IMG/VR virus record: IMGVR_UViG_3300027733_000003
Location: 1 to 57,955 of that record
Source: a virus
Lineage: Duplodnaviria > Caudoviricetes
Strand: one strand, 5' to 3'
Length of the DNA: 57,955 nt
Under the pieces are notes generated by a model, which worked only from the letters and a program-made list of their open reading frames with translations, searched no databases and had not been told where the DNA came from. Position numbers and translations under genes: made by a program. How positions within the stretch are numbered: the stretch's first letter is position 1; each line of letters opens with the position of its first letter. Below, piece by piece: positions 9,826 to 56,975 of this stretch.

Positions 9826-12800
9826 TTAAATTTGACTTGCAAGTTGTACAAAACCTTTGTTTTGTTTGGTAGTTTCTACTCCGCCAATTACACCACGTTC
9901 CCGCTTCATTGCGGCCATTGGTGCTTTTAAAAGTTCGGACATAGGCAAACGTTTGTATCCATTTGACACACGGGATTCTTCCATACGTTGGAATTCTTCA
10001 CGTGCTTTAGCCATACCTTGGGCATCTCCTGCCCTGTACGCATTGACGTACTCACCCTTAATATCTGTCGACTTCTGGTGATAGAACTTGTCGTACTCAG
10101 CTTTTACGTTCTGAGTAAATTGACGATCAGTCACAGTATTCGTTGGCAAACCCACAGCTTGGAAGGCGGCATCCACCATGCCAAAGTCTTCTGGCTTAAG
10201 AACGAGGTCACCATTACGCATGGTGATACCCTCAGTAGCAAAACGACCAGCCTTCATCACATTGGCAACCCCATTGGGCATCGCCATCTCTAGGCCTTTG
10301 TAATAGTCGCCATGCAACAACATCCCAAACGCATCAGCAAACTTCATCCCCATACTTGCACTTGGCCCCATTGCTGCCACAATAATCTTCTCTGCACCAG
10401 AACGACTGGTCAAGTCACCTTGAGCAAATGGCAGGATAGAAGCCACACGACCCATACCCAGCTTGTCACTCACATCCACACCCAATGCAGCAGGCACACC
10501 TCTGAGCAGTAAGTCAGATACCACCTTGTTGTTTATCATGCGGCGCAGTTTGAACTCAAAGTCATCTGGCTCATCAGGGTCGCCAAGAATCTTGGACATC
10601 ATCCAAGCAATCTGACTCATGAATGGAACAGCCATTGCTCCACCAAGCACGGACATCTGAGCAACAATAAATCCAAGGGCTTTACGAGCCACCATCTTTT
10701 CTTCAGTCGATGCCCCCTTGAACGAGTTGTGCATTAGTCTTGCCAGCATGGACAACTGAATGATCTGGAAACGGCGGAACTGACCAACCACACGGCCTAT
10801 ACCGTTAGACAACGCACGTGGGGTGTTGAAGCCATCGTATGAACCATGAGTATCGGACACCACCTGAGCAGCGTATTGAGTGGCTGCTTCGGTATTGTTG
10901 TTGCCGTACTTCTCAAGGTATCCACGATACGCAGCAATGGCAGCTACAGAACGGTTGACCGATTCGATGCGGTTGTTCACGCCCTGCATCTTGTACATCA
11001 CCTTGGCAAAGACTCCCTTTTCATCAGCCGTGGCTCGTTCAGCAGAATCCATACTGATATCAATCTTGCCCATACCAACCAGCTTGTTGAGCATGTCACG
11101 CACATCAGCTGGGGCCTTGCTGAAGTCAATGTGTTCGTTGATACCCAGACCCTTAATCAACCCAGCGATCTCTTTGTACCCACGATTGACTTGGGATACA
11201 GCGTTGCCATACCCAATACGACCAGCCAAATATGGCACGGATATCACCGCAGTCTGAGTAATCTGTTGCAAGTAGAACGCAGGGCTGAACGTCAAGCTCC
11301 ACAGTGTGTTCATACGTGTGAGTGCAACTGACAACGGGCCGGGAGACTTGTACTCCATGCTGTTGGCTTGACGCTTTATCAACTCGTTGTAGATCGGCAT
11401 GGCTTCACGGCGATGATTTCTAGCCTCATTCCGCATACGTTCCATCGAATCTGTAATGGCGTCGTTGTGTTCCAGCGAAGACAGGAAGTGAGCATCAGCC
11501 CGACCACTTGTGGCCAAGTTACGCATCATGTTGTCATCAGCACCAGACACATTTTTACGCTGCATTTCTGATTTACGGGCGCTGGCTTCAGCCACGGTCA
11601 TCAAGTACAAGTCCCCAACCATCTTGTTCATGGAGTGGAAGTTCACAGATGACATGTCGCCATCACTGACTTGACGCTGTAGCAGATTACGCAGACGACC
11701 AACAGCCAGATGGATATCTCCGCCACCAGTGTAGGATTCTTCAGCTTCTTTCACACCAGCATCTTCTGGCATGATGTCGTACTTGCCTGTGGCGTGCAGC
11801 TTCTCAGCAATGTTGTCAGCTTCGGCTTGTGTTTCAGCGAACTGAACCACGTAGTGATCAGAGTTGGAAACATTGTCTTGCAGCCATTGCTTGGCTTGTT
11901 CTACATCCCAGTCACCCAGCTTGGCACGTTCTTCATAGTGCTTGAACTCGGCAGACTTGGCCACAACCACATGGTCACCATAGCGGCCAAGGTAGGCATA
12001 GGGGGACGAAACATCCACACCACGTACTTTGGCTTCACGGGCAAGTAACAGTTTCTTTTCCGCAGCCAGTTCTTTCATTTGCTCTGCGTCGCCCATAACG
12101 GCTTTTTCACGGTCAGCAAACTCACGGTCAATTGCAGCTTCCACAGCTTTCTTCTTGAGCATCAGGGCTTCATAGCCATGCTCAAACACTGCCTTGATTA
12201 CTTTCTGGGCTGACTCATCAAAGGCATCAAACCGCAGTTTCATGTCTGGGTCGACAGTAAACAAATCAGTGCCAACACGATGTTCGCCGGGGTAGTAGCC
12301 CCACTTGCCACTAACTGTGGAGTCCTTGATGAACTTGTTGACTGAGTTGGCTCCAGTGCCTTTGTACTCGCCAGACAGCTTGTCAAAGTCAGACAGAATT
12401 TTATTGATGCGCTGTTCAAACTGGATGCGTGTAGCTTGCCGTGCGTACTGTGCATTCAGATAGTCATTGGCAGACTTCATGTATTTGGAAGCCATCTTCA
12501 CCACATCTTCTGTGATGGCAGATGCGTAGATACCGTTCTTGGCTTGATGCAACAGGTTGGTTACCAGACTGCGCGTAGGAGTACGCACAAATGGCGGCAG
12601 TCGATTTATTGTTTCATCGACTGTAGCGGCAGGGTTGATACCAAACTTAACCTTTTCTTTTGATGCACTGACATTGGTTTGTAGGGTAACAATATTTTTG
12701 TCATTGAAAACTACGTAGTTAAAACTACCATCGTTTGCAACCGCATCAGCGTATTGAACACCCTTTATTCCGGCTTTATCGAGCATAGCCGCAAATTTTT

Positions 12801-15800
12801 TAGGGCCGTATGCTTTCTCTTGTTCTTTAAACCACTTAATGGATATATTTCCATTTTGGTCATACAACCCTAAACTTTCAAGCCCTTTGCGCACTACATC
12901 GCTTTGCGCATTCATGGGTTGTTTTGCCTTCAGCCACTCGTCAGATGCAACACCAAGACTGGTGCGATAAAGAACAGCTTTAGCCCCCACTGGGGAATCC
13001 CCGTCAATAGCAGCATACCCTTCAGCAGTTGGCTTAGCTTGGGCAAAATACGATCCCTGACCCCACAGCTGCCCTCCAACGCCAGTGCCTATTTTTGTAG
13101 TTGAAAATTGTCTAAACAATACGTTTGAACCATGCCATGTACCAGCAATTTCTAAACGGGCAGCACCGTAAGCCATGTTGACCACGTCTTGTGCAGTCAA
13201 AGATTCTGGTTTAAAGCCAAGTTTACGGACGGCGTTCTTAAAGCCAGCCCACAATGTACGGAACCAGCTACCAAAAGCTCCAGTCATCTTGGCAGCAGCA
13301 TTTGGATCAACACCCGCCAACATAGCTTCTTCAACAAAATATGCAATCAACTCAGACATCACGTCTTCATCAGCTACATTGGCGTTGCCAACACGTTCAA
13401 CGGCTTTACGTGCTAGCGTAGATTCTTTGGAATTGTCATTGAGGTCAGCCCACTTACTAATTTGGCCAGCCAAAGAAACAATATCTTTTTCTGCAAGCAT
13501 CCGGTCAAGTCCAAGGTGGCCACCTACTTCGTGCATAAACTTGGCACGTCCCTGACCTTCTTGGATACGGCTTGCAACTAGAATAGCTTTGCCACTTCGT
13601 GTCCAACCAAAGGCTTTATCGTTTGACCATCCAATAGCTTGGTCACGCATATCTTCAAGCTCAGCTACATCATCAACGATGATCACATTGCGGCCAAGAG
13701 TGTCAACACGCATGAATGCTTTGAGTTCAGCAATCAAGGACTTGGCAGTGTATGGTTTTGCAGGTGCGGTGCTTTTGCCAAACTGCGCTGATTCCAACCC
13801 CACAGGCATAGTTACACCCTTCATCATAGAAGAAGGGGCATACTTCAAAAGATTTGATGCTTGTTTTGTATTACCGTTTCGGTTTGCTACTGCATCTGTT
13901 AATACGTAAGAAGGAAAAGATCCTTCTGGGTCTATCGTGGCTTGAATAACTATTTGAAAGATAGACTGTCGAAGTGAAGTGCTTCTTTCATATAGACGCA
14001 ACGTGTCCATATCTTTATCAGCAACAGCTTGAAGCGCAAGTTTTTCATTTCTTGTGAGTGGGGCATATTCTGTATGTAGTAAACGTGCTTTTGTCAATTC
14101 CTGCTGCGCTTGCTGCCTTACTTCTTTGGGTTCTTTGTTCCGCAATAGGTTTTCTTGACCTTCTGGACGTCCTTTAAAAGCATCCCACAAACCTTGGCTT
14201 ACCAACTCAAAAGTTTTGGTTACTTTACCATTTACGATCAAGTCCAATGTTCTACCGTTTTCTTTTAGGTATGGTTCCTCATTGTGTGTTTCATTGTCTA
14301 TGTTCTTACCAAACTTAACATCTTCTTCCCGACCAACCACTGATACCTTAGAAGTTGTGGCTTGTCCGCCTTTTTGAGCAGGGGTGGTTGTTGTGACTGT
14401 CTCTGTCTTTGGCGTGAACGGTGTACGAGTCAACTCGTCTTTGTTGGCCTTGTTCTGGGCAGTCGCTCCAGTCAGAAACTCACCGACCAGTTCTTGTTTG
14501 TCAGGAACGATGAACAGCGCAGCGCCGTCCATCTGTTGGAGGTTGTTGGCTACCAGCGAACCGTACGTGGCTTTGTCGACGTTGATACAACCGAACGAGT
14601 AGCGGGAATCTGCTGCGCCTTCTTTCTGCAATGCAGCCAGCCGTTGCTGGGCATCTTTCTCTTTTGTCCACACAGAGTGGAACAGGGTTACGCTGTACTC
14701 GCCGTCAATCGCCTTGTCCAGAACGAACACCTTACCAAAATCATACCCACCAGCTGTATGAGCTTCACCGCCACCACGCTTAGCATCTCGCAAGCCCATA
14801 GTGAACAGGCCAGCAGGTGTGATGCGATTCTGAACTTTGTCAGTGTTGCCCTTGTAGTAATCCCCAACGGTCTTACCAATCAGGACTTTCTTTTGCAAGA
14901 ACAAAGAACCATCAGGGTTAAATATAAATACCCGTGCGTTTGGCTTGTCAGTCAGTACAAAGAACTTGTTCTCTGCTTTGAGCTTGGCAGCGATGCTTGG
15001 GTAGATCGTGCTGTAGGCTTCTTGCGCAGCCTTGGACATGTTGGCCTTAGCCACTGCTGGAACTTCTGCTTTGACTTCCCTCACTTGGGAAACAGTACGT
15101 GGAGCGATAACCACAACTTCACTGTTCTTCGTCATGAGCGATGGGTTAAAGACCATAGCCGTGGCCAACACGCCAGCGTGAATTGCCTTAATGATGTCGC
15201 GGATGGCGGCAGCAACTGCCTGAGCGCCCTTGGTAGCGTAAGCTGTTACATCTTCTTGCAGCTTGGTAAAGAACTCTGACGTTCCACGTGTTTCACCATA
15301 GTGGTTTTCCAGTCGCGCAATCTGTGCTTCTGGTAACGCAGCAATAGGTTCTTCCAGAATTGTCTGTTGCTCAGGGTTTATTTCAGCAGCCTCTGGGCTT
15401 TCCTCAATGATTTCTTCAGCGGTCAGTTCTTCTTCAGCTACTGGTTCAGTCTGTTCTTCAACTACAGGCTCAGTCTGTTCTTCAGCAACAACATCACTTA
15501 TTGTTTGTCGCTTTTCGGTGGCGATTTCGGTGGCAGGAGCCGTGACAATTTGGTTGACAACAGCTGCAAGGTTGGCTTTACCACGGTTTGCCAAGTCGTC
15601 AAAACGAATCCTTTGATCTTTGTTAAGGTCTGCGTAAGCAGGAAGTTCAGGCGCGAGAGTACGTAGTTCATTCCATTGCTCCTCTGGGGTTTTTACTTCT
15701 TCTGGGACGACTTCTGTTTTGGCTTGCTTAGTTTGTTTGGCAGGCTTTTCGGGTTTGGCGTTTCCTTCGCCCACCGTTTTGCCACTTCTGGCTGGTTTGC

Positions 15801-18800
15801 GAACATTTCCCTCATCTGCGCTTTCGACTTGAACGGCATTTGTTTTCTCCAATTTTGCTGATGCTACAGATAAAGTTTTTGTAAGTCCATTTTGGAATTT
15901 CACAGTAACAGTAGTTTCTGCGCCATCACCAGAAAAACTTTCAATAACACCAGTTCCCAGTTTGGGATTGACTACAGTGTTTCCAACCTCTAATCCTTTG
16001 CGGTCGGCCTTGCGTTTTGTACGAGTTTCGGCAACCAGCTTATCTCGCTTTGTTTGCTCAGCGACGTCAACTTCTGGTTTTGCTTCTGCTTCTACTTTTG
16101 TAGTTTCACCTGTTAAATCAACTTCTTCCTCTTCTTCATAGGCAACACTCTTTTCACCTTTGGCGGCTCTTTCTTTTTGCAACGCAGAATAAGTATTCCA
16201 AGCCTTGGCTAAGTCTGCCGCAGCTTTTGCGTCAGCTGGATTAGCATTTACTTTGGCTTGTAGTTTGTCAATACGGTTTAGTATGACTTTACCTTCAGAG
16301 TCAACAGCCCCTTGGCTTCCGCCCGCTTTTGCAATGGTGCCCATAGTGCGGTCTTCGCCGCCTTCACCACGGTTCATCTCCTCGGCCAATAATTTGCTAC
16401 GGTCGCCTTCTTGCTCACCAGCTTCAAGTTCTTCAGCCAATGTTTGAGATTTGTTGGTCTCATACTCTGAACGAGTGGCGTACAACCCAGCTAACTCACC
16501 CTCACCAATACCGTCAGGGAATTCCGCAGAACGGAAGTTGGCAGCTTCTGTCACCATCTGCAAAGCAATTGCAGGATCAGTCACAACATATTGACCAATT
16601 TTTCTGTCCATCTTGACGCCCATACGCTCAAGTTGTTTTTGAACAGCAGCTTCTGACATGCCCACCAAATCAGCAATGTCTTTTTCCTTGAACTGTTCCA
16701 ACAAAGACAACCGCAAAATTTCAGTGCGGGTCTCAGCATTAGCACCCTTTACGGAAGCCAGTATCTTTCCAAACAACTCACGAATGATCTCTATGCGGCG
16801 TTCGCTTGAGATGTGGGAGAGGTCTGAGGCGTAGTATCCGATGGTTGGGCTGTAGACTCTTGGGCCGTTTTGAACAGCTTGCTCACCCACAGCGCCTGTG
16901 GCGGTTTGTTGAGGTTGATTGGGTACTTGCCCTTCACCCAACCCACTTGTGGCTTGTTCATTTACTTGCCCCGGCTGCTGACTACCAGAAAGGTCGGTGG
17001 CGACACCGGTGCCAGTCCGTATTCCTTCTCCTGATGGCTGTCCAGTTTGCTGGCCAGTCTGTCCTTGAGGCTCACTTCCTGTAAGGAGGGATTGAACTCC
17101 GCTGGGTTGTACATCCCCAGTGTTTGCCCCGCTACCTTCTCCTGTTCCGCTTTGGATTGGTACTGTTCCCAGCCCGGAAGTTGTTTGCAATGTTTGTCCA
17201 TTTTTAGCTCCTTTGGTTTGTTGCGATGCGGTGTAGCCGCTGGTATCCTTGCCTGTCAAGGCTTGGTGGATGGCGTTAAGCTGCTCAAGCTGCGCACCCT
17301 TAGTGCTTTGAGACAACTGTTCTAAGATTTGTGCGGCTTCTTCCACAGAACCCACGTGGGCAATTTGGAATTTGGCAGCGACTTCAGCTACCTTTTCAAA
17401 AGTCTTACGGACAGAGTCCGTGGCTTTCAGTGGATTAAAATTTACGTTGACCAGCTTGCCGCCGGTCTGTTCATTGGCTACGTTTATAGCGCGGGTAATT
17501 TGGTTCTGAAAACCTTTTAACGACCCAACTAGATCAGCAGTGGCTTTGGCGGCTTCTTGAATTGCTGGGCCAAATACAGGCTTACCAAAGAAGTCCCAAC
17601 GTTGCCCCTCAGGTTTTGGCAAACCTACTCGGTCTGCCATGTAGCTTACACGTTCAGTTTCTTTTTGTTGTTGCTGTGTTGCAAAATCTGCTTGTGTTTG
17701 TTGTTGGTTTTGTTGTTGAGTAGCAGCTTGCGATTGAGCAATATCTGTAGTTCCGCCTGTTACAGCTGGAGCCGTGATAGGTGCAGCGGTTTGATCGACC
17801 AGTGAAGAACGACCAGCCAGTGGGTTAACTCTGTCAGCAGTGCCGCTCATCTGAGCAGCCATGTCAAACTCAGGAGTTGTACCTGCCTGAGTACCAACCA
17901 AAGAAGAACGGCCTGTCAGCGGATCAACCCTACCAGCAGTACCACTCATCTGAGCGGCCATGTCAAATCCGGGGGTTGTACCCACTGGGGTGATTGTTGG
18001 GTTCTGCTGGAACGCTTGTTCAACCTCATTGGTAGCTGTTTGGCCAGTCTGTGGATTGGCAGCTGTATTCGCTCCGGGAACAAAACTTTCACTACGTCTC
18101 CAACCACCTGCACCACCACCGATAAGCCCGCCAAGTGTGGCTCCACCGATAAACGATTCTTTGAACCGCTCGTTGGATTTCTCGTTGAAGAACTGTTCTG
18201 TGGGGTCGACCGCCATGCGGCCCGCTTGGTTTACAAATTCTTGTGATGTCTCTTGAGCGCCTTCTTTGACAGCCGCTGTTGTTCCAGTAGCAGCAGTTCG
18301 CGCCAATGCACCTTTGGCTCCTGATACGTTGTCAAGCAAGTTCAGTGGGTTACGGAAAAGCTGCCCACGGCCTAAAGCACCTTCAAGGCCCACCACATTC
18401 AAGGCAGCGTAGGGAACACCTAACGCAAACGCAGAAGCTGCATCAGTCGTGCCTGATTGTTCACGTTGGTTGGACAGCACATCGCCCACAGAGGATGGAT
18501 AAGACGCAGCGACTACACCAGCATCAGAACCAAGGGACAACGATTTTTGAGCAACCTCAGCTGCTTTTTTGGCTTTTGCTGCTGCAACTACATCACCTGA
18601 AGCTTGTGCTGCCCTATATGCAGTAGTGGCTTCTTCTAAAGCAAGGCGAGTACCGCCCATAGCCAATCGACCACCAATACCGCCAACCAAGGCTTCAGCA
18701 AGATATGGGGCAGACTGAATGGCTAAACCTTTTGCGTAGCTACCAAAATCCCCTACACCTTGAACATCCGCAAATGTATCAATAGCGCCCAGTTTTCTGG

Positions 18801-19110
18801 CTTTTTGCGCAGATATATCAGCACGTAGTTCATTCTCAGATCGCTGTTTAGCAAGCCAACTGCTTGTATCTTTTGCGCCAACCGCACCTGCAACTTCTTC
18901 GGCTACGCCATACAACCCAGCTTGATAGCGATCAACAGACGCAGATGCTTGTTGTCCTGTAATACCGCTATTGGAAGCACCAAACCGCAGTTTGGCAGCA
19001 ACTTCTTTTTCGTCCCAACCCAAAGTCTTTGAGACTTCTTGGACAATGTCGTAATCAGACATCTTGTCCCCACCGGGGATCAGGGCGCGGAACTGATTAA
19101 TCGTTGGCAT
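9826..19110 (-). CDS. Giant internal virion/DNA ejection polyprotein (T7 gp16-like position), multi-domain
   Basis: 3094-aa ORF last in the GNAT + three-gene block; contains HTH, Tudor-like, YkuD-like (H...SFGCINV), HEVGGH and ART-like (WHGS...GSYFA) segments and a helical hydrophobic C-terminus. Confidence 0.85.
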   Translation of the reverse strand: MPTINQFRALIPGGDKMSDYDIVQEVSKTLGWDEKEVAAKLRFGASNSGITGQQASASVDRYQAGLYGVAEEVAGAVGAKDTSSWLAKQRSENELRADISAQKARKLGAIDTFADVQGVGDFGSYAKGLAIQSAPYLAEALVGGIGGRLAMGGTRLALEEATTAYRAAQASGDVVAAAKAKKAAEVAQKSLSLGSDAGVVAASYPSSVGDVLSNQREQSGTTDAASAFALGVPYAALNVVGLEGALGRGQLFRNPLNLLDNVSGAKGALARTAATGTTAAVKEGAQETSQEFVNQAGRMAVDPTEQFFNEKSNERFKESFIGGATLGGLIGGGAGGWRRSESFVPGANTAANPQTGQTATNEVEQAFQQNPTITPVGTTPGFDMAAQMSGTAGRVDPLTGRSSLVGTQAGTTPEFDMAAQMSGTADRVNPLAGRSSLVDQTAAPITAPAVTGGTTDIAQSQAATQQQNQQQTQADFATQQQQKETERVSYMADRVGLPKPEGQRWDFFGKPVFGPAIQEAAKATADLVGSLKGFQNQITRAINVANEQTGGKLVNVNFNPLKATDSVRKTFEKVAEVAAKFQIAHVGSVEEAAQILEQLSQSTKGAQLEQLNAIHQALTGKDTSGYTASQQTKGAKNGQTLQTTSGLGTVPIQSGTGEGSGANTGDVQPSGVQSLLTGSEPQGQTGQQTGQPSGEGIRTGTGVATDLSGSQQPGQVNEQATSGLGEGQVPNQPQQTATGAVGEQAVQNGPRVYSPTIGYYASDLSHISSERRIEIIRELFGKILASVKGANAETRTEILRLSLLEQFKEKDIADLVGMSEAAVQKQLERMGVKMDRKIGQYVVTDPAIALQMVTEAANFRSAEFPDGIGEGELAGLYATRSEYETNKSQTLAEELEAGEQEGDRSKLLAEEMNRGEGGEDRTMGTIAKAGGSQGAVDSEGKVILNRIDKLQAKVNANPADAKAAADLAKAWNTYSALQKERAAKGEKSVAYEEEEEVDLTGETTKVEAEAKPEVDVAEQTKRDKLVAETRTKRKADRKGLEVGNTVVNPKLGTGVIESFSGDGAETTVTVKFQNGLTKTLSVASAKLEKTNAVQVESADEGNVRKPARSGKTVGEGNAKPEKPAKQTKQAKTEVVPEEVKTPEEQWNELRTLAPELPAYADLNKDQRIRFDDLANRGKANLAAVVNQIVTAPATEIATEKRQTISDVVAEEQTEPVVEEQTEPVAEEELTAEEIIEESPEAAEINPEQQTILEEPIAALPEAQIARLENHYGETRGTSEFFTKLQEDVTAYATKGAQAVAAAIRDIIKAIHAGVLATAMVFNPSLMTKNSEVVVIAPRTVSQVREVKAEVPAVAKANMSKAAQEAYSTIYPSIAAKLKAENKFFVLTDKPNARVFIFNPDGSLFLQKKVLIGKTVGDYYKGNTDKVQNRITPAGLFTMGLRDAKRGGGEAHTAGGYDFGKVFVLDKAIDGEYSVTLFHSVWTKEKDAQQRLAALQKEGAADSRYSFGCINVDKATYGSLVANNLQQMDGAALFIVPDKQELVGEFLTGATAQNKANKDELTRTPFTPKTETVTTTTPAQKGGQATTSKVSVVGREEDVKFGKNIDNETHNEEPYLKENGRTLDLIVNGKVTKTFELVSQGLWDAFKGRPEGQENLLRNKEPKEVRQQAQQELTKARLLHTEYAPLTRNEKLALQAVADKDMDTLRLYERSTSLRQSIFQIVIQATIDPEGSFPSYVLTDAVANRNGNTKQASNLLKYAPSSMMKGVTMPVGLESAQFGKSTAPAKPYTAKSLIAELKAFMRVDTLGRNVIIVDDVAELEDMRDQAIGWSNDKAFGWTRSGKAILVASRIQEGQGRAKFMHEVGGHLGLDRMLAEKDIVSLAGQISKWADLNDNSKESTLARKAVERVGNANVADEDVMSELIAYFVEEAMLAGVDPNAAAKMTGAFGSWFRTLWAGFKNAVRKLGFKPESLTAQDVVNMAYGAARLEIAGTWHGSNVLFRQFSTTKIGTGVGGQLWGQGSYFAQAKPTAEGYAAIDGDSPVGAKAVLYRTSLGVASDEWLKAKQPMNAQSDVVRKGLESLGLYDQNGNISIKWFKEQEKAYGPKKFAAMLDKAGIKGVQYADAVANDGSFNYVVFNDKNIVTLQTNVSASKEKVKFGINPAATVDETINRLPPFVRTPTRSLVTNLLHQAKNGIYASAITEDVVKMASKYMKSANDYLNAQYARQATRIQFEQRINKILSDFDKLSGEYKGTGANSVNKFIKDSTVSGKWGYYPGEHRVGTDLFTVDPDMKLRFDAFDESAQKVIKAVFEHGYEALMLKKKAVEAAIDREFADREKAVMGDAEQMKELAAEKKLLLAREAKVRGVDVSSPYAYLGRYGDHVVVAKSAEFKHYEERAKLGDWDVEQAKQWLQDNVSNSDHYVVQFAETQAEADNIAEKLHATGKYDIMPEDAGVKEAEESYTGGGDIHLAVGRLRNLLQRQVSDGDMSSVNFHSMNKMVGDLYLMTVAEASARKSEMQRKNVSGADDNMMRNLATSGRADAHFLSSLEHNDAITDSMERMRNEARNHRREAMPIYNELIKRQANSMEYKSPGPLSVALTRMNTLWSLTFSPAFYLQQITQTAVISVPYLAGRIGYGNAVSQVNRGYKEIAGLIKGLGINEHIDFSKAPADVRDMLNKLVGMGKIDISMDSAERATADEKGVFAKVMYKMQGVNNRIESVNRSVAAIAAYRGYLEKYGNNNTEAATQYAAQVVSDTHGSYDGFNTPRALSNGIGRVVGQFRRFQIIQLSMLARLMHNSFKGASTEEKMVARKALGFIVAQMSVLGGAMAVPFMSQIAWMMSKILGDPDEPDDFEFKLRRMINNKVVSDLLLRGVPAALGVDVSDKLGMGRVASILPFAQGDLTSRSGAEKIIVAAMGPSASMGMKFADAFGMLLHGDYYKGLEMAMPNGVANVMKAGRFATEGITMRNGDLVLKPEDFGMVDAAFQAVGLPTNTVTDRQFTQNVKAEYDKFYHQKSTDIKGEYVNAYRAGDAQGMAKAREEFQRMEESRVSNGYKRLPMSELLKAPMAAMKRERGVIGGVETTKQNKGFVQLASQI
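15693..15839 (-). CDS. Nested +1-frame small basic protein MPFKSKAQMREMFANQPEVAKRWAKETP... (48 aa)
   Basis: TGGAG RBS 7 nt before ATG; resembles the MPFKSxAQ...PExAKRWxKETP small-protein family I recall as free-standing phage late genes. Confidence 0.7.
   Translation of the reverse strand: MPFKSKAQMREMFANQPEVAKRWAKETPNPKSLPNKLSKPKQKSSQKK
16791..16961 (-). CDS. Nested +1-frame ORF MNKPQVGWVKGKYPINLNKPP... (56 aa)
   Basis: ATG immediately follows the TAA of the nested 79-aa ORF (TAAATG). Confidence 0.45.
   Translation of the reverse strand: MNKPQVGWVKGKYPINLNKPPQALWVSKLFKTAQESTAQPSDTTPQTSPTSQANAA
16962..17201 (-). CDS. Nested +1-frame ORF MDKHCKQLPGWEQY... (79 aa)
   Basis: AAAGGAG RBS 6 nt before ATG; host frame is low-complexity G/Q/T/S here. 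Confidence 0.55.
   Translation of the reverse strand: MDKHCKQLPGWEQYQSKAEQEKVAGQTLGMYNPAEFNPSLQEVSLKDRLASKLDSHQEKEYGLAPVSPPTFLVVSSRGK
17800..17985 (-). repeat. Two tandem 33-aa (99-bp) repeats in the giant protein
   Basis: GTTPxFDMAAQMSGTAxRVxPLxGRSSLV twice. Confidence 0.85.
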
Positions 19111-19122
19111 TACTTATCCTTA

Positions 19123-21417
19123 TTAATTTCTACCAGCTTTTCTATACATCCTGTCTTGTTCTTCATGAAGCTTTTTAGCATAGGCATCAGCAGCTTCAGT
19201 TGTTTTAAACTTACCAAGATGCTCACCAGTTTTTTTGTAATGAGCAATAGCTTCGTTGTCACTAACAATTTTTCCATTAACCACTGTTGGAATAAGAACT
19301 TCAACATTCTCGTTCATAGGTTTAAAAGATATAGAACGAACAGTGCTTATAGAACCATCTTTGTTTGTAACAACAGGACGTTTTGTAAGATTAATGTTAC
19401 CTGATTCTACAAGGCCAGCAGACTTAGCCCCACTAGAATCTGCGCTGGCAGGTATCGCACTTTTATTTTGTTTGGCTGCGCGGTCTGCTTTAATTCTTGC
19501 TGTTTCCGCATCCATATCAGCTTTGAATTTTGCTTCTTTTGCCACGGCTTCTTTGTCTGGATTACCTTTGTACGTTCCGCCGCCGCCAACCGCTGCTGCA
19601 TCTGTATTATCTGTAGTAGATATAGGAAGGGCTGACTTATTTTTTCCTGCATCAGTTTTATCAGTCTTGTCGTTGCCTTTAGCTTTCTTAAAAGCTGTGA
19701 CCATGGGGTCTTCCCCAAACACGTTTGGCCATTTTTCTTTGACGGCTTCAATTTGTTCTGGAGTAACTGCATTTTCAAGATCGCGGTATGCAGCAGTCCG
19801 TTCTTCCGAGCTTACTACGGAGCGATCAGGTTTTTTCAGGGCATTGATAAGTCCGGTGATGTCTCCACTTTTCTTAGCGGCAGCAGTAGCTGCTTTTAAT
19901 AACACGGCTTGACCTTCTGGGCCGTTTTGCTGTTCTGGTGTGAGTTTGGAGAATTCTTCCATATAAGGTTTCATCAAGGCCCCAGCTTCAGCATTTACTG
20001 TTGCCACTTTAGCTAACGCGTTATGCAAATTAGCATTGGCGTTAGAAGCCTTAGCCGCAGCGTTTGCTTGGTTAGCCGTTGCTGCAAAAGTACCTGCATC
20101 TTCTTTTGCTTTAAGTTCTTTAGCAGATGTGGCGGCATTAGCTGTGGCAGCAGCAGCTTGCGCAGTTTGAGCAGTTGCAGAAATTCCATGGGTTTTCAAT
20201 TCTTGTTCTTTTTGCAAGAACGTAACCAGTTCTTTTTCGTCCCTGAACAAACCTTCTTTCATCAGTTTGCTTTTTAAATTGTTCGCATATTCTGTCTGCG
20301 CCAATTCTTGCAACGCACCCTTGGCTTGGTCTAAATTTGTAATTGGTTGGCCAATAGGTTTACCTTGATCGTCCAAAACAACAATAGCGCCGTTTTTAAA
20401 TTGAACATCATGACCAAGAGCTTTTTTTAGTTCAGGGCCAAAAGTAGATACCAAGCCTTCCATGCCCTTACTTTTTGCAACTTCTGAAATTTGATCCAAG
20501 CGGGCTGCTGATGTTCTACGAACATCCTCCATGGCGGCATTGAACTTCTGGTCAAATTTTTCTGTTGTATCTGCTTGCCGAATTTTGTAACTATTCAGAG
20601 TCATAGTCTGATCGCCAACTTTTATTGTCTGTTGGTTGGCAAGCGTCTGTGTATATTTGGACTCCATGTCCATGGCTTTATCAAGGGCGTACGAATTCCC
20701 TGACTTCATCGCCAAGTCTTTCAACTTTTGAATTTTAAGAAGGTGCGGGTCGTTCGACAATGCGGCTGTTGCTGAAGTTTCCGCTGGTGTAGGTGCAGAT
20801 GCAGGTGCTGCTTTATTCGTTGCTATTGCTTGTGCAGGTGCTGCCGCTGCCGCTGGTGCTGTTTTTTCAAAAAGAGCAGTTGTTCTAGCCAAACTTTCTC
20901 TACTGAGAGGCTCTACCTCAGAATCAGGTGTTGGCGCAGCAGGTGTATTTTTTTGATTAACCCAATCTGTAAAATCTAACTTAGTTGTTTTGTCAGCTAT
21001 CCAAGCATTGTAATTTTCATTACTGCGGTCAAAAACAGGCGTACTACCTGAAGATTTAATTACTGACCCATCGGCGGGCGGCATAGCGGCTGTTTGCGCT
21101 GTTGTTGGTATCGCCGTAGGTGCCTTTGCAGCTGCCGCCGCAGAAGCAGCACTCATTTCATCACCACCGGCAAATCTTGCAGTAACATTACCCACTTTGT
21201 CAGGCGCATCCATGCCAAAGGCTTGCTTTAGCAGGTCGTTGAATTCTACTTTTTGCTTTTGTTCAGTTTCTTCCCAACCAAACTTTTTCTTTTGCATGCC
21301 AAGAGCTTCTTCACGCATCGCCATTTCTTTTTCACGAAACGCTTGTTCTTGATACGCAGATATGCCTTTGGCGACACCGCCAGCAAAATTACCTAAAGCA
21401 GCAATATTAAGCCCCAT
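19123..21417 (-). CDS. Putative internal virion/ejection protein (gp15-like position)
   Basis: 764 aa, Ala-rich helical, N-terminal [11 protein letters not shown]; distinct globular C-terminal domain. Confidence 0.7.
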
Positions 21418-22540
21418 GATTCAGTACCTTTCCATAATCAACCATTTTGTAGCCATTGCTACCAATAAGAACGGCGTCAGGAATAACTTTTTCAACATCA
21501 TGAGCCATAACACCAATTTGAAAACCATGCCCAGCTTCACCACGAAACTCTGGTTTGTATTGGAATGAATACAGCAAAAGCCCATTCCCCAACTGACCAA
21601 TCTTGGTGATATCTTGTTTGATGCGGATGTCTGAATATTTTGTAATAGCTGCTGATCCAGCTTGGCCAATCAGCGAACCAAACCCACTCATACCAGCGCC
21701 TTCAGCTTGTTGTTGTGCTTGATACGCGCCAACGTCGGCTTGGTATTTTTGAACACCCAGAGTACCAACTTGACCCCAGCCGCCCATAGCAGTCTGTGTA
21801 GCGGCGTTACTTACGCCACTTATAGCAGCGGCATTACCCACCATGTTTTGACCAGCAGCAGCACCTTGGCTATTAGCACCCAGACCAACATTGGTCTGAT
21901 TCAAAGACTGAGCAGGTAAGCCCGCGTACATGTTGTACACGTTAGCTTGTTTCTGAAGACCAACTTGTTTGGCGGCTTCCCGTGTCTGATTCATCGCAGC
22001 AGCAGTTGCCGCAGCTTGGGCAACTTGATTTGAGTTAGCTTGTCCTTGTGCTACACCAGATGTCGGGTCAATACCATAAGACCGTTGGCGCATGGCCGTC
22101 TGTTCACGTTGAACTTGTGCTGCTGTTCCAATATCGCCTGCGGCTTGTGAGGCCAGTTGTTCTTGATATGCCTCTTCGTTATATTTATTTGCGTCGTCCC
22201 GCAATTTCTCCATGGCAGGAATACCTGATTCCTTGTACATGGCATAAGACTCATCCGCCCGTGTTAAATTTTTCTTGGCAGCTTCTTGGGTAACATCATA
22301 AGTACCTTGAAGGCGTGCGTTTTGAGCTTCGGTCTGCTTTAGTAAGTCAGGATAAATTTTGGTTTTAAATTCAGCCCACTGCTCAGTAGCCAACTTGGAT
22401 AACTCGCGTTGAGCAATACCAATATTAGGGTCTGCATCTGGAGCAGAACTACCGCCTTTACCCCACAGAGTTGAAAGACGACCTTTGGCGGTTGGCTTAA
22501 ACGCCAACTCAGGCAACATCTCAAAATCGTGCATCTTCAT
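21407..22540 (-). CDS. Putative ejection/pilot protein with C-terminal Peptidase_S74-like chaperone domain
   Basis: GKGGSSAP start, Gln/Ala/Gly-rich body, [10 protein letters not shown]...[15 protein letters not shown]...VDY. Confidence 0.75.
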
Positions 22541-22967: not shown

Positions 22968-23171
22968 TTACCCACTTTGGTTGATTCTGGAAAGTATTTG
23001 GTTGACTTTTGTGATGACGTCTGATAACACAGCGTCTGACCCTAGAGGAGCCAGAGAAGTAGACCCCGGTCGTGCGCCAGTGATTAACTCCACATTGGTC
23101 TTCAGTGGTTCAAGAATTTGCGACAGTTCACGAGGTAGGCTCCCCGTTGCTGGGATCGCTGGCTTCTTCAT
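22968..23171 (-). CDS. Hypothetical tail-associated protein
   Basis: 67 aa, ATGA-coupled to the upstream gene. Confidence 0.65.
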   Translation of the reverse strand: MKKPAIPATGSLPRELSQILEPLKTNVELITGARPGSTSLAPLGSDAVLSDVITKVNQILSRINQSG

Positions 23172-25000
23172 ATCTGTTTCAACTCACCAATGGTGGAAGC
23201 CATACGGAACTGGCGAATTGGAGCATTGCCAGTCAACTTGACCTCATACACGTAGTTCTTGTTGGCCGCTGGCATACGCACAGGTTCTTGATCTGTAATA
23301 CCAGCAGAAAATATCTGAGCATCATCAGCATTTATAACAACTTGTACGTTTCGTACGTCAGCAGCATTAGGAATAGGAGTCAAAATACTTCCATTAATCG
23401 CAAAAATATTAACAGCCGCACCATCTACTCGTCCCCCCAACGGGGTTCCCGCTGCCCAAATTACTTGGTTTGCCGCAATAATTGCCGCCACATACGTGTT
23501 GTATGAAGACGTGTCTGCTATGTAAATCCAGTCAGCTTGCAGCTTCAGCGCCCCAAAATTAGTAGGGGATGGCATGACAAACTTCTTTGACTTCCATTCA
23601 AAAAACAAGTTGTTGATGGGGTCTGCGTCCAGCTGATAAATTTTGTTATCTGAAGAATCGACGGTGTATACGTTGGCTGTTGTGCGCTCAAGGAATATGG
23701 CATATCCCGGAACAGCTAAGGTAACCAGAGGGGGTGTGTCCCCGCGAGTAATGACAAGTGCAGCCTTGGTGTTTCCCGATTCATAGAACGCCAAGTACAT
23801 GTTCTGGTAAATCGCCCCCACTATAGAAGTCGGCAGGTATGCACTCCACTCATTTCGGGTAAACAACGCACGGGTAACAACATCTGTGCTGCCCGGAGCG
23901 ATGGCTACGATACCGTTGGGGCTGGCGTACAACACGCCATACTGGTCGCTGGCAATAGATTTCTTGGACACGCATGGCTCAAAAATACTGAGCTTTTCCT
24001 GAGTCATTGATCCGGGAGTAGAACCAGAGATCAGATATGTAGAGTACGTTGTACATACAACAAGGGTCTGGCCAAACACACCCATACCTATGATTGGAAA
24101 TCCAACCGTCATCATGTAGCTTGTTGGCCACGCATGCGGAAGGTACGGCTCACAGAACCAGACTTGGTTATCTACAAAACCCGCCACAATGCCGTTGGGC
24201 ATAGGTATTAACCCTTTAAGGGTCGCAGGAGGAGGTGCGTAGTACAAGGACGGAAGTGCTGTTCCAAGGTCGGCTGCAAGAATATTGTCAGCAAAAGAAC
24301 CGCTGGCCACGCCAGTTGCGGGAGTAACCGATACAGTACCCACATACAAATAAGACACTGAGGTTGCGCCCGTCACGGCTCGGTAAATCCGAATGGCTGT
24401 AATGTTGTATCCAGCTGCTGTGGTTGGCGCAGTGGCAAAAGCACTGACTGTTACAGTAGCCCCAGTCGCCCATGTTGCAATAGAAGCCGCAGGGCTTGGG
24501 CCAGATTCTTCAAGCACAGAACCAAACGTGCTGATGTACGTATACACATACGCCCTGTTTTCAGCAGTCGTACCAGCCGTTGTAGCAAGTGTGGGGGCAG
24601 CTGTAGGGTTTGGTACGCCCATCTGGTAGTAGGCATCTGGGAACGGCTTTGTGCCTGACCCACTTGTCGTGGCCAAGTTCCAGTTGGTTTTTTTGGGGCC
24701 AACACCATCGGTGTAGTAAACACGAAAATCAGTGGTATCTACCACAGGGCTTGGAACAACGTCTACATCACTCGTCCACTCAAGCCACGCTTTATCGCCT
24801 GTTGTTAGCTTTTCCAGCTGGTATATGGTTTTTACACCAGACTGACCAAGCGTGTACACAGCAACTGGTTTGCGCCACGGTCGGATTTCACCCGACTGCA
24901 ACTTTAAATTTGACGCAGTTTGTGCCTGCGTAGGCCCAAGCTCAGTTGGGCCAATACGGGGGGCGATCCCTGAGAACTGTTCTAACTTAATTACAGACAT
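23168..25000 (-). CDS. Tail nozzle/head-stabilisation protein (tubular protein B-like)
   Basis: 610 aa beta-rich; VWFCEPYLPHAWP, CVSKKSI, LYASPNG, WKSK motifs; synteny. Confidence 0.7.
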   Translation of the reverse strand: MSVIKLEQFSGIAPRIGPTELGPTQAQTASNLKLQSGEIRPWRKPVAVYTLGQSGVKTIYQLEKLTTGDKAWLEWTSDVDVVPSPVVDTTDFRVYYTDGVGPKKTNWNLATTSGSGTKPFPDAYYQMGVPNPTAAPTLATTAGTTAENRAYVYTYISTFGSVLEESGPSPAASIATWATGATVTVSAFATAPTTAAGYNITAIRIYRAVTGATSVSYLYVGTVSVTPATGVASGSFADNILAADLGTALPSLYYAPPPATLKGLIPMPNGIVAGFVDNQVWFCEPYLPHAWPTSYMMTVGFPIIGMGVFGQTLVVCTTYSTYLISGSTPGSMTQEKLSIFEPCVSKKSIASDQYGVLYASPNGIVAIAPGSTDVVTRALFTRNEWSAYLPTSIVGAIYQNMYLAFYESGNTKAALVITRGDTPPLVTLAVPGYAIFLERTTANVYTVDSSDNKIYQLDADPINNLFFEWKSKKFVMPSPTNFGALKLQADWIYIADTSSYNTYVAAIIAANQVIWAAGTPLGGRVDGAAVNIFAINGSILTPIPNAADVRNVQVVINADDAQIFSAGITDQEPVRMPAANKNYVYEVKLTGNAPIRQFRMASTIGELKQI

Positions 25001-36006: not shown

Positions 36007-37029
36007 TTAGCCTGCGACTTGCAACAGGGCCAAACCGTTTGTCTGAGCGACTTGGGTGCCGTACACATTCAAACCGCGAACCAATGTACCGAAGTCATTG
36101 GGGTTTTGCAGTGACTCAACCTTGGCGATTTGAGATGCAAAAGTGATTGCTGACTTGTGGCCTGCGATCACAGCATGACGCTTCAATGCGCTGGTCAGAG
36201 TTGCGTCTGTACCAGTGTTAGGGTTCATGTAAGTCTTACCAACAGCGCCACGTGGAACGAGGTTAGAGACATACACTGTGAAGCGGTCGATCATACCGAT
36301 CTTGCCGTTGCGCAAAACGCTGGCAGAGTCACCCATAAACTGGGCTTGTGCCAAGTTTGATTGCATCAGGATTTGACGCTCTGTAGGGGTGATGATCAAC
36401 CAACGGTCAGTCTCAGGGACGTTGTTCTCATCCAGCACGCTTGACAAAGCAGTGATGCTTGACAAGATGTTGGAAGCGGTCAAAGTCACAGGAGCCAGAT
36501 CGGTGCCCAGATTGAAAGAACCAGAGATTGCACCAGCGGTAGCGCCTTGGTTGGCAGCTGCGCCTTGGTTGAAGTTGGTATACAGAACGTCTTTGTCGAT
36601 CTGAATCTTCATCTGCATAGCAGCATCATTGGTGAACATGTCCATCAATTTAGGCTTAGCTTGCAACTCCAACACGTTGTTCACGTTGACGCCGAAGTAT
36701 TTACCCTTGTTGATGACCAGAGTGATGGTGCTGGGAGCAGGCACTTCATAAGCCAGATTCTGGCCAACAGAGTAGCTGTTGATGGTGATGGTAGGGATTG
36801 TATTGATGATCACGGTGTCGCCCATACCAGTAATGTCACCTTGCCAGTCAGTGTTGGCAATCTCACCGAAAACGGTGGCGGCATAGAATTTCTGTGCCAG
36901 TTTGCCAGACCAAAGGGCTGGGATGAAAGAACCAGAGTAGGCGGTGCCGGAATAGGCAACTTGACCTCCGGGGGTATTAAAACCGCCGGAGTTAATGGGA
37001 TAGGCTGCTGCTGCGGTGATCGTGGACAT
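36007..37029 (-). CDS. Major capsid protein
   Basis: FIPALWSGKL...ANTDWQGDI..MGDTVII...LDENNVPETDRW...RGLNVYG; follows the scaffold. Confidence 0.9.
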   Translation of the reverse strand: MSTITAAAAYPINSGGFNTPGGQVAYSGTAYSGSFIPALWSGKLAQKFYAATVFGEIANTDWQGDITGMGDTVIINTIPTITINSYSVGQNLAYEVPAPSTITLVINKGKYFGVNVNNVLELQAKPKLMDMFTNDAAMQMKIQIDKDVLYTNFNQGAAANQGATAGAISGSFNLGTDLAPVTLTASNILSSITALSSVLDENNVPETDRWLIITPTERQILMQSNLAQAQFMGDSASVLRNGKIGMIDRFTVYVSNLVPRGAVGKTYMNPNTGTDATLTSALKRHAVIAGHKSAITFASQIAKVESLQNPNDFGTLVRGLNVYGTQVAQTNGLALLQVAG

Positions 37030-38607: not shown

Positions 38608-38635
38608 ATTATCACTTGTTGCTGACACTTGTCAA
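38608..38635 (-). promoter_or_regulatory. Putative sigma70-type promoter for head genes
   Basis: TTGACA-N16-GATAAT. Confidence 0.55.
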
Positions 38636-40822: not shown

Positions 40823-42223
40823 TCAAGACCAGACGTAGTCTATCTTCTTGACTTCCACTGCTTTCCTCTGCCACGTGTCTCCGGTCACATTACCGTCTGC
40901 ATGCAGGCACGCATATTGATGCGCATCAGCAATGTGGGAGTGGGAATTCTTCTCCGGCTTATCGTCCTTCTCGCCGTTTTGTCGGATTTTATACCTATAT
41001 CCGCCGCGAAGGGAAGTAATTAAATTTGTACAGCACGGATCAATTAGATGGGCAGGTTTCCCATCCACAACTCTAGTGAGCATCTTGTCAACTGCATTGA
41101 TACGTGCCACGACACTGTTTGACTTGGCCGAGATGACTCTAAACCCCTCGGCACGCAGGATATCAAACACTGACCGCTCGTCTGTCTGCGCGCGCTGCTG
41201 CCCCGCTGGGTCTCCGATGATCAACACATTCATACCCGGAAATCTGTTGGCCAGTAGAGGTTTCAACTTCTCTCGGCAGAACCGCAATGTGCCCATGCCG
41301 TCAGACACAAGGTCAGCAAAAGTCAACAACCGCCCCTGCATGTCGATCTGGTTTATAGTGCATGCCGGTGTAAGCCCGAAGTCCATCCCGATGATGAGCG
41401 GGTGTGTGGACAGCTTGATGTAGTTCAGTGTCTGCTTGGACACGTGGGTGTCTCGATCAAACGCTCTAAACACTGGCTGGCCAGACAGCGACTTACCAAA
41501 GTCCCCGTGCACATACACATCGACCCAGTCCTCAGACTTACCCTCACACAAGTTCTCATAGTACCCATCGGGTAGGAACTGCACCCAGTCCGCTTCTTGG
41601 CTCAGACCACTGGGCTGTATGGTGACGTGCGTGTTCTTTGGAGGTTCGGTAAGTATCTTCTCCCAAAACGTATCCATGTCCGGCGGGTTAGTTGCCCCCC
41701 AAACTTTGTGTATCTGTCTGCCGTGGTCATCACACGCACCAACCCCGTTCATCGTCCTGTCTGGGTAGCGCCCCAGTCGACCAGTCAGCGCGTTGTAAAT
41801 GTCTGGGTTAATCTCGCGGAACTCATCCATAACGCCAAATGTCAACTGCAACGAGAGTAGACGACGTACGTCATTGGCATCATCCAGTCCACGAAACAGT
41901 ACTTCACACTCGACGTCATCAAACTTCAACTGAAACTTACTGTTCGTCTTCTCCAGTATCCCCGCTTCCCCATCTGGGTACCACTTGATGAAGTCCGGTA
42001 TGGTCGTGTCCCACAGCATCTGGCGGGTGTTACGAATGACGGCCACCCTGCTACGACGTATGCCGTCCGGTGACGGTGCAATACGCTGAGCCTCATAACC
42101 AATCTTGATGAGCGCCGCCGTGGTCTTTGTCGAACCCACTGGCCCCACAATGAAATTGGCAAACTTGTCTGCGGTAAGGAATGGAACTACCGACGCTGGC
42201 GGTGTGTAGACTAGGTTAGCCAT
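40823..42223 (-). CDS. terL: Terminase large subunit
   Basis: GPVGSTKTT, VMDE, ATNPP, GMDFGLTPA, GDPAG, SHIADAHQY. Confidence 0.93.
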   Translation of the reverse strand: MANLVYTPPASVVPFLTADKFANFIVGPVGSTKTTAALIKIGYEAQRIAPSPDGIRRSRVAVIRNTRQMLWDTTIPDFIKWYPDGEAGILEKTNSKFQLKFDDVECEVLFRGLDDANDVRRLLSLQLTFGVMDEFREINPDIYNALTGRLGRYPDRTMNGVGACDDHGRQIHKVWGATNPPDMDTFWEKILTEPPKNTHVTIQPSGLSQEADWVQFLPDGYYENLCEGKSEDWVDVYVHGDFGKSLSGQPVFRAFDRDTHVSKQTLNYIKLSTHPLIIGMDFGLTPACTINQIDMQGRLLTFADLVSDGMGTLRFCREKLKPLLANRFPGMNVLIIGDPAGQQRAQTDERSVFDILRAEGFRVISAKSNSVVARINAVDKMLTRVVDGKPAHLIDPCCTNLITSLRGGYRYKIRQNGEKDDKPEKNSHSHIADAHQYACLHADGNVTGDTWQRKAVEVKKIDYVWS

Positions 42224-56763: not shown

Positions 56764-56975
56764 CTGACTTAGTAAATCACCCCGACCACTACAAAGTTGG
56801 CGGCATTGAAACCATTGACTTCATTGAGGCCAAGAAGCTTAACTACAACATGGGCAACGCTGTGAAGTACATCAGTCGAGCCGAATATAAAGGCAACAAG
56901 CGGCAGGACTTGGAAAAAGCCATTTGGTATATCAACAGAGAACTGGGCAAACTTAATGAAAACAATAACGCTTGA
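56760..56975 (+). CDS. DUF3310 (SaV/T7 gp1.7-like) protein
   Basis: VNHPDHY..GGIETIDFI...GNAVKYISRA..KG...DLEKAIWY. Confidence 0.88.
   Translation: MTDLVNHPDHYKVGGIETIDFIEAKKLNYNMGNAVKYISRAEYKGNKRQDLEKAIWYINRELGKLNENNNA

Follow-up and report, generated by a model that had tools for sequence, protein, structure and literature searches.

This work concerns a 57,955-base stretch of viral DNA, hereafter called the window, which is the whole of the virus record IMGVR_UViG_3300027733_000003 and represents a complete podophage-like genome of ~57.8 kb. Its longest open reading frame (ORF) encodes a giant protein of 3094 amino acids (aa), within which lies a segment that is almost certainly homologous to the Tudor-type RNA polymerase (RNAP) interaction domain of the helicases PcrA and UvrD, as judged from profile comparisons and a structure model. 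We tentatively propose that a large clade of uncultured ~58 kb podophages has built this RNAP-docking domain into a protein delivered by the particle, and that this protein, as the first to enter the cell, would clamp the SI1 hairpin of the host RNAP, thereby tying the genome end and the ADP-ribosyltransferase (ART) and protease effectors of the protein to the transcription machine.

For a phage that lacks an RNAP, the host enzyme has to be captured in the first seconds after entry; the means known so far are small proteins made early and Alt, an injected ADP-ribosyltransferase. If the proposal is true, the phage would solve this problem differently, by delivering a protein with a copy of the domain through which a host factor docks on RNAP, which would be a new way of seizing the host enzyme.

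A preliminary description of the same DNA had suggested that the Tudor segment and a helix-turn-helix (HTH) segment preceding it in the protein constitute one injected module that engages RNAP. The two peptides that it named are present letter for letter on the minus strand (RTEILRLS...QKQLERM at aa 795-830 and GLEVGNTVV...AKLEK at aa 1039-1089), and the range of 16621-16740 that it gave for the HTH corresponds to aa 791-830.

Homology of the Tudor segment to the UvrD/PcrA domain

Comparison of a 64-aa piece of the giant protein with Pfam gives PF21196 (PcrA_UvrD_tudor) as the best family, with an E-value of 0.0054 and 17.0 bits against a cut-off of 23.9 bits, followed by DUF3553 and then CarD_TRCF_RID, both of which are Tudor families related to RNAP. 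When the same piece is searched against 177,635 distinct solved sequences, which is the set of solved chains used throughout, the top two matches are the C-terminal domains (CTDs) of E. coli UvrD in 6yi2 and 7egs, with E-values of 0.005-0.007.

Profile A1, made from 12 Tudor representatives that are less than 80% identical to one another (mean column identity 78%), has nine matches at E ≤ 0.05 among the solved chains, and all of these are CTDs of UvrD, PcrA or UvrD1. The best match is 4c2t with 2.1e-7, 7egs follows with 1.1e-5, and 6yi2, 5dma and 9dqs are also found. At the level of Pfam, PF21196 is matched at E ≤ 0.1 by all 12 representatives, the best E-value being 5.2e-8, and CarD_TRCF_RID, another Tudor family that binds the β subunit of RNAP, is matched by 4 of the 12 at the same threshold.

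The AlphaFold2 model of the Tudor segment (pLDDT 77, pTM 0.62) has strands at positions 20-23, 27-35, 42-47 and 52-56 and a short one at 62-63. In a Foldseek search with this model, ranks 1-8 are all Tudor domains of UvrD, PcrA or UvrD1, with target TM values of 0.81-0.89 for isolated domains and root-mean-square deviations (rmsd) of 1.0-1.6 Å. The top hit is 7egs_B, the UvrD CTD from its complex with the E. coli RNAP lobe (E 1.3e-4, TM 0.89, rmsd 1.0 Å over 52 columns, 35% identity), while ranks 9-20 are taken by the RNAP-interaction domains of Mfd and CarD. It is because of the matches of the A1 profile, the matches of every representative to PF21196 and the first eight Foldseek ranks that we consider the homology virtually established. 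The preliminary description had recognised the UvrD/PcrA pattern with Asn in place of a His and Leu in place of a Phe, and it was right in both respects. The two replacements are seen in the alignment, where the Leu stands at a Phe/Trp position.

The helicase domains (PF21196; 5DMA, 6YI2, 7EGS, 7EGT and 9DQS) and the phage domain thus appear to have the same fold and a detectable common ancestry, with the Lys, Leu and Phe residues discussed below kept, and flexible low-complexity linkers flank the domain in the helicases and in the phage protein alike. There are also clear differences. The UvrD/PcrA Tudor domain normally stands at the C-terminus of a superfamily 1 helicase, after a flexible linker, whereas in the phage it is internal to a 3094-aa protein that has no helicase core, and Pfam scans of the giant protein detect no helicase family. 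The Tudor domains of Mfd and of CarD/CdnL (PF02559) are the next-best families by both sequence and fold and also bind RNAP β, but their likeness to the phage domain is much weaker (rmsd 2.9-4 Å, 16-23% identity). They bind the β1 lobe by β-sheet extension and not the SI1 hairpin (PMC5397179; here and below, literature statements are taken from excerpts of the cited articles).

In the collection of cultured phages, no phage with this Tudor domain was found, either by megablast of positions 14000-18000 or by tblastn of aa 737-1137 at E ≤ 1e-3; a 70-aa Tudor piece gave one record, at E 0.08. The viral structures of BFVD likewise contain no match at E ≤ 0.001, the best ones being small uncharacterised phage proteins at E 0.008-0.05. 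Full-text searching of the literature found no description of a UvrD-type Tudor domain in phage virion proteins, and the word 'Tudor' is absent from the main text of the survey of polyvalent proteins (PMC5512222), the supplements of which may list more domains. The kind of protein to which the window's giant protein belongs is thus known already, while the UvrD-type Tudor as a cargo domain in polyvalent proteins appears to be new; the catalogue of these proteins would gain a cargo domain.

The binding face and the proposed docking on the host RNA polymerase

In the CTD of PcrA, the substitutions H681A, W684A, K712A and L714A each abolish the pull-down of RNAP, and F705 is named as a residue of the aromatic cage (Sanders et al., PMC5397179). 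The target of the domain is a TGE hairpin in the SI1 insert of RNAP β. UvrB has the same hairpin, through which it competes with RNAP for PcrA, and the Lys of the PcrA CTD is docked against the Glu of the hairpin (Urrutia-Irazabal et al., PMC8318588). For UvrD, the residues F681, W709 and Y714 are three of the four that form the aromatic cage, and they give weak DNA binding (Kawale and Burmann, PMC7585439).

Aligned to 5dma, the phage residues K1078, L1080 and F1072 correspond to K712, L714 and F705 of PcrA, and the Lys also to K708 of UvrD. Of these, L1080 and F1072 do not vary across A1, and position 1078, which is occupied by Lys or Arg in each of the 12 representatives, lies outside the invariant and ≥90% columns. 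Unlike the helicase domains, the phage domain has Asn and Leu for His681 and Trp684, has mostly lost the cage, and carries a basic N-terminal helix as well as an invariant LEKTNAVQ tail past the end of the helicase domain. Judged by the alignment, one half of the binding face is conserved and the other remade, uniformly across the family, and the exchange of His/Trp for Asn/Leu offers a natural variant for studying how UvrD/PcrA Tudor domains choose their partners.

The domain is recurrent and not a one-off. A search with aa 740-1110 of the giant protein gives 142 relatives at E ≤ 0.01, and in the best 120 of these, to which all counts below refer, the Tudor domain is present in 70. In the 54 Tudor-bearing relatives in which the C-terminal core of the giant protein is less than 60% identical to that of the window (median 38.6%), the Tudor domain is 65-79% identical, with a median of 71.3%. 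Because the domain is found in 70 of the 120 relatives and remains ~71% identical where the rest of the protein has drifted to ~39%, it probably recognises something conserved in the host.

When the A1 profile was compared with 1.84 billion library representatives, 785 proteins were found at E ≤ 0.001. Of these, 14 have E ≤ 3e-26; they are 530-3130 aa long and mostly giant. A gap separates them from the rest, which start at 1e-18 and include many short proteins with a C-terminal Tudor domain, as well as proteins of helicase size at 1e-9 to 1e-5. By this profile measure, the phage-type Tudor is a distinct and tight group. A different architecture of the same domain is seen in the proteins P0129, P0131, P0135 and P0138, which are 199-399 aa long and contain three to five tandem stretches matching the Tudor profile.

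When prokaryote genomes were scanned with the Tudor profile, a single locus was hit (L002:6001-6207), on a 60,447-bp contig filed under a metagenome-assembled genome (MAG) of lake Phycisphaerales. The Tudor domain of this relative is 72% identical. The contig, judged by its size, is probably a phage contig that was binned with the MAG, and we do not count it as an indication of the host.

From the homology and the model, whether the Tudor domain binds host RNAP β is close to an even question, falling just short of probable. The mechanism that we consider is the following. After ejection, the Tudor domain would dock the giant protein, present in low copy number, onto the β subunit of the host RNAP. 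The docking site would be the exposed TGE hairpin in the lobe/SI1 region, as for UvrD and PcrA, with the conserved Lys1078 pairing with the Glu of the hairpin; UvrB, which has the same hairpin, would be an alternative partner. Docking would bring the giant protein, including the ART and zincin domains, to the transcription machine, perhaps along with the incoming end of the DNA, while the HTH would be a separate cargo domain, probably DNA-binding, with no obligatory pairing to the Tudor domain. Docking is the best-supported reading because the closest relatives of the domain bind RNAP β, the Lys and Leu are kept, the conservation is strong, and the phage depends on the host RNAP. It is also readily testable, since the domain has 50-70 residues and folds alone in the helicases, and the presumed target is a defined hairpin.

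A complex of the Tudor domain with residues 150-450 of RPOB_ECOLI was predicted, as the preliminary description had advised for a proteobacterial RNAP β subunit. The score is 0.41, compared to 0.00 for the best of three controls, which lends the docking weak support. The mark used for such scores is reached by 58 of 80 solved complexes and by 2 of 110 mismatched pairs, and at scores of ≤0.60 there are only 7 of those 80 solved complexes, together with both passing mismatches; since the prediction used an alignment of our own, these benchmark counts hold only roughly. The runs agree in at least 87% of the contacts, and the pLDDT of the partner is at least 79. It has to be kept in mind that the pass may be a memory of 7EGS, a like complex that has been solved, and that it shows likeness and not binding.

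A number of points weigh against docking on RNAP. At the level of the domain itself, the window's own Tudor sequence scores under the Pfam cut-off (17.0 vs 23.9 bits), and the complex is only a weak pass, obtained with a stand-in polymerase from E. coli that may not be the host's. PcrA H681 and W684 are replaced by Asn1048 and Leu1051, which are invariant in the 12 representatives, and none of the three named cage residues of UvrD (F681, W709 and Y714) is aromatic here, only Phe1072 being kept. The binding surface has thus changed, and therefore the partner may have changed as well. Also, the UvrD Tudor domain is known to bind UvrB, DNA and, in mycobacteria, Ku (PMC8318588, PMC11975281, PMC7585439).

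Further points concern the relatives and the delivery. The high conservation of the Tudor domain could also result from the module having spread laterally in recent times. An ART of the window's type is found in 20 of the 70 relatives with the Tudor domain, compared to 20 of the 50 without it. Packaging and ejection of the giant protein are deduced from gene order and distant relatives, whose core is 22-28% identical, and the link of the core-matching relatives to Bcep22 and JC1 is taken from a statement in PMC6630229.

The changed surface leads to a first alternative, in which the fold is the same and the partner is not. The retuned Tudor domain would bind UvrB alone, another host protein, the phage DNA, or an internal capsid or portal component, in the last case for packing or release. 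Two of the four residues needed for the RNAP pull-down are indeed replaced, and only the cage position of PcrA F705 is still aromatic. The phage type forms a tight group of its own (14 proteins at E ≤ 3e-26, with a gap to 1e-18), the invariant LEKTNAVQ tail lies past the end of the helicase domain, and UvrD/PcrA Tudor domains are known, in the excerpts considered, to take several partners. Nevertheless, the two residues of most importance for the TGE hairpin, Lys and Leu, have been retained, and the families nearest by sequence and fold, first UvrD/PcrA and then Mfd and CarD, all bind RNAP β. The phage genome contains no TGE helicase-interaction motif in any frame (0 strict, 0 loose). Altogether, we regard a different partner as somewhat unlikely. 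A partner internal to the phage was considered separately and set aside, the pattern [VIL]-D-x-x-T-G-E-[VIL]-[VILT] being absent in all frames and a looser form in ORFs of more than 100 aa.

Another option, corresponding to the competition with UvrD raised in the preliminary description, is that the Tudor domain acts as a decoy, occupying the TGE hairpins of RNAP and UvrB and blocking the recruitment of UvrD/PcrA, which would affect backtracking, R-loop removal or repair early in the infection. Ejected giant proteins are packed in few copies per capsid, while a cell has thousands of RNAP molecules, and a stoichiometric competition by the few delivered copies would thus be implausible. RNAP and UvrB do share the hairpin and compete for PcrA (PMC8318588), and the isolated UvrD CTD binds the RNAP core about three times tighter than the RNAP-interaction domain of Mfd, for which the Kd is 250 nM (PMC7585439). 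However, UV repair in vivo is hardly affected when UvrD or UvrD1 lacks its Tudor domain (PMC11975281), which means that the phage would gain little. We thus find the decoy function very unlikely.

The HTH domain and its relation to the Tudor domain

We now consider the HTH domain, which the preliminary description had assigned to the sigma70 region 4/LuxR type. Sigma70_r4_2 (PF08281) is indeed its best Pfam family, with an E-value of 3.1e-4 and 20.8 bits in the whole protein and of 7.7e-6 and 25.9 bits for a 97-aa piece, the cut-off being 25.7 bits. The match covers the core of the HTH, at profile positions 15-49 of 54. In alignment A2, which comprises 19 HTH representatives, 18 match Sigma70_r4_2 at E ≤ 0.1 (best 3.7e-7), while HTH_23 is matched by 15 and Sigma70_r4 (PF04545) by 4 of the 19.

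The comparisons with solved structures do not favour sigma region 4. Alignment A2 has 24 matches at E ≤ 10 among the solved chains; they are weak and belong to LuxR-type, ArsR and KorA regulators, with no sigma factor among them. In the structure model (pLDDT 89.5), five helices are seen, and the recognition helix is followed by a β hairpin. The best Foldseek hits are winged helices of the MarR/ArsR type with E ≥ 0.027, a sigma region 4 chain appearing only at rank 19. With VIA-align, sigma region 4 chains have Z 5.0-5.8, tied with winged helices of the MarR, ArsR, Fur and IclR types, in a range that is common for unrelated models. Sigma region 2 was found neither in the whole protein at E ≤ 1 nor in ten overlapping pieces at E ≤ 0.5.

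According to its model, the conserved domain at aa 761-860 has the fold of a winged HTH to which helices have been added, while the sequence of its core most resembles sigma region 4.2 or LuxR. Compared to sigma-70 region 4 and LuxR-type domains (PF08281, PF04545), which include the best Pfam family over its core, it has a predicted wing and extra helices, is not accompanied by region 2, and is structurally no closer than generic winged helices. The sequence pattern is real, but it lies at the threshold and is common to generic HTH families, and the domain is probably a separate cargo domain that binds DNA. Hence, the HTH itself and its best Pfam family stand as first described, while the sigma identity does not, and we think it very improbable that the domain is an equivalent of sigma region 4. 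Similarly, of the structure searches proposed for the two segments, the one for the Tudor domain leads to UvrD/PcrA and the one for the HTH does not lead to sigma region 4 in particular.

A likeness of the HTH to MotA of T4 was also considered. The N-terminal domain of MotA comes out top in VIA-align (Z 7.0; 1bja Z 6.3), with a score that lies within the noise, and a comparison of A2 with MotA by hhalign gives a probability of 0.1%, so this candidate was rejected. As a separate observation, the domain opens (16807-16830, minus strand, aa 761-768) with a near-invariant motif, (S/T)DLSHI...RR, which precedes the first helix of the model and in which D, H, I and RR are invariant in the 19 representatives.

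If the two domains worked together, the Tudor domain would hold RNAP and the sigma region 4-like HTH would recognise promoter-like sequences at the entering end of the genome, for early transcription or a transcription-driven entry of the DNA. Both domains do occur in one protein that would be delivered, the phage has no recognisable RNAP, and Sigma70_r4_2 is the best Pfam family of the HTH. Among the relatives, the HTH is present in 58 and the Tudor domain in 70 of 120, but only 10 have both, at a spacing of 166-173 aa; 48 have the HTH alone, 60 the Tudor domain alone and 2 neither. With so few relatives having both, the domains do not make up an obligatory module, and the single two-part module of the preliminary description is not supported. 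The joint function is further weakened by the absence of a sigma region 2 and by a model that is a winged HTH with extra helices. In addition, no sigma factor appears among the solved-chain matches of A2, sigma region 4 is tied with winged helices, and the assembled genome is circular with a 127-bp overlap, which leaves the entering end not fixed. We consider joint action of this kind distinctly unlikely. The idea that the Tudor domain aims the ART at RNAP was likewise rejected, the two domains not being associated among the relatives (20/70 vs 20/50), and is kept as a possibility only.

Finally, one may ask whether both segments are ordinary stretches of a large low-complexity protein that resemble known domains by chance. 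On the window sequence alone, both matches are at or under the Pfam cut-offs. On the other hand, the profile E-values extend to 2e-7 with only UvrD/PcrA at the top, the respective families are matched by all 12 and by 18 of 19 relatives, the models are confident, and both the Tudor and the HTH domain are far better conserved than the core of the giant protein. The probability of such an explanation is practically negligible, and for the Tudor domain chance resemblance is refuted by the profile, PF21196 and Foldseek results.

The giant protein, its probable delivery and its genome

The features of the giant protein and of the virion genes are collected in Table 1. Judged by its domains, the giant protein is a polyvalent, DarB-like protein, the name 'DarB-like' fitting the C-terminal core only, and its front two thirds are a mosaic of exchangeable cargo domains. 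The core is found in 117 and the window's type of ART in 40 of the 120 relatives, which are all 1800-3200 aa long and of which many lie on 55-63 kb contigs. Unlike DarB, the window protein has no detected methylase/helicase pair; neither the DarB methylase nor the SWI2/SNF2 helicase family is found by Pfam in the whole protein or in pieces of it.

Table 1. Positions of the domains of the giant protein and of virion genes in the window
Feature	Position	Strand	Basis
Giant ORF (P0001), 3094 aa, longest ORF of the window	9826..19110	-	ORF list and translation
HTH domain, ~100 aa conserved, aa 761-860	16531..16830	-	Pfam, alignment, model
HTH core, aa 795-830	16621-16728	-	Sigma70_r4_2 match
Linker between HTH and Tudor, aa 861-1025, Glu/Ala/Gly/Lys-rich	16036..16530	-	E 27, A 25, G 16, K 15 of 165 residues
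Tudor domain, aa 1039-1089	15844..15996	-	PF21196, profile, Foldseek
Conserved Tudor unit including basic N-terminal helix and LEKTNAVQ tail, aa 1026-1095	15826-16035	-	Alignment and model
YkuD-like L,D-transpeptidase-type domain, aa 1384-1513	14572..14961	-	PF03734, E 4.4e-4, 21.3 bits vs cut-off 23.4
Zincin-like metallopeptidase region	13252..13533	-	HEVGGH at aa 1860-1865; weak MPTase-PolyVal at aa 1895-1953
ART of polyvalent type, aa 1992-2145	12676..13137	-	PF18760 ART-PolyVal, E 6.6e-7, 30.6 bits vs cut-off 31.2
C-terminal core common to DarB-like giant proteins, aa 2492-3049	9964..11637	-	phrog_10089 'DarB-like antirestriction', E 9.7e-51
Large terminase	40823-42223	-	PHROG scan
Portal	38632-40779	-	PHROG scan
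Major head protein	36007-37029	-	PHROG scan
Internal virion protein	23168-25000	-	phrog_511, E 6e-138
Virion structural/ejection-like protein	21407-22540	-	PHROG scan

Some details of the domains can be added. When the whole protein is scanned, no Pfam family is assigned at E ≤ 1 to the linker between the HTH and Tudor domains. The YkuD-like domain carries an SFGC motif at aa 1505-1508 and may be a part of the ejection protein that acts on the cell wall. The match of the zincin-like region to PF18818 has an E-value of 0.031 and 14.8 bits, which is under the cut-off, and the ART has a PARP match at E 0.015 and the motif WHGS at aa 1992-1995. One strongly hydrophobic stretch, aa 2811-2831, lies within the C-terminal core. 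Near the N-terminal end (17842-17982, minus strand, aa 377-423), there are two copies of a ~33-aa unit that starts with GTTP(G/E)FDMAAQMSGTA, and these are followed by a long Gln/Gly/Thr-rich stretch; the unit is found in 14 of the 120 relatives.

The C-terminal core matches giant proteins of 54 cultured-phage records at 22-28% identity, among them those of Skulduggery, Atu_ph08, PBC5, PEp14, Parlo and Mwe-JY07, with hosts that are mostly Proteobacteria. Like the DarB-like giant virion proteins of Bcep22/PEp14/PBC5-type podophages, the window protein is a very large polypeptide in which numerous unrelated domains are combined and whose gene lies among those of the virion; ART-PolyVal, MPTase-PolyVal and the DarB-like core are all common to both. 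The Atu_ph08 paper ties the giant protein of that phage to that of Bcep22 (PMC6630229). In JC1, the DarB-like gp69 of 4515 aa was found by mass spectrometry in CsCl-purified virions, with 51 unique peptides (PMC9144972). Polyvalent proteins have been argued to be injected with the DNA, and T4 Alt is cited as an injected ART that acts on RNAP (Iyer et al., PMC5512222). Alt and the window protein thus both have an ART domain, and Alt is delivered by the particle and acts on the host RNAP at the start of infection; it differs in having no known RNAP-docking Tudor domain and in belonging to another ART clade (excerpts of PMC5512222).

By analogy with these systems, the giant protein is probably carried in the particle. 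Its ORF closes a long block of minus-strand genes that includes the portal, terminase and capsid genes, and comes after the genes of the internal virion protein and the ejection-like protein; tail fibre proteins are also encoded in this block. The delivery of the protein into the cell with the DNA is inferred from this gene order and from the distant homology of the core. That the protein would be ejected, as the preliminary description assumed, is in keeping with this arrangement and with the C-terminal core shared with DarB-like giant proteins, one of which is in JC1 virions (PMC9144972).

The plus strand carries the replication genes, encoding a helicase, a primase/helicase, a DNA polymerase and an exonuclease. 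The statement that the phage encodes no RNAP also agrees with our searches: a six-frame search of the genome with PF00940 for a single-subunit RNAP was empty, as it was for the control genomes, and no RNAP family turned up when the giant protein and a further 20 large ORFs were scanned with PHROG. The window contains no tRNA genes.

The 'direct terminal repeat' of the record is a 127-bp overlap, bases 1-127 recurring at 57829-57955. The DNA polymerase gene spans the ends of the record, with 56956-57954 continuing in 1-972 and both pieces matching phrog_17. Because this gene is split across the ends, the map is circular or permuted and the repeat arises from overlap in the assembly, with the physical ends of the genome left unfixed.

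A scan of 42.5-47 kb for promoter-like sites and repeats gave three sigma-70-like sites, compared to 6.2 expected from shuffles, none of which is tied to the HTH domain. At 44603-44871 (plus strand), in a gene-poor stretch where the plus-strand genes begin, there is a 40-nt inverted repeat that is 88% complementary and has its arms 189 nt apart. It encloses perfect inverted repeats of 16-18 nt made of GGAATATT units, and the stretch could be an origin or operator region.

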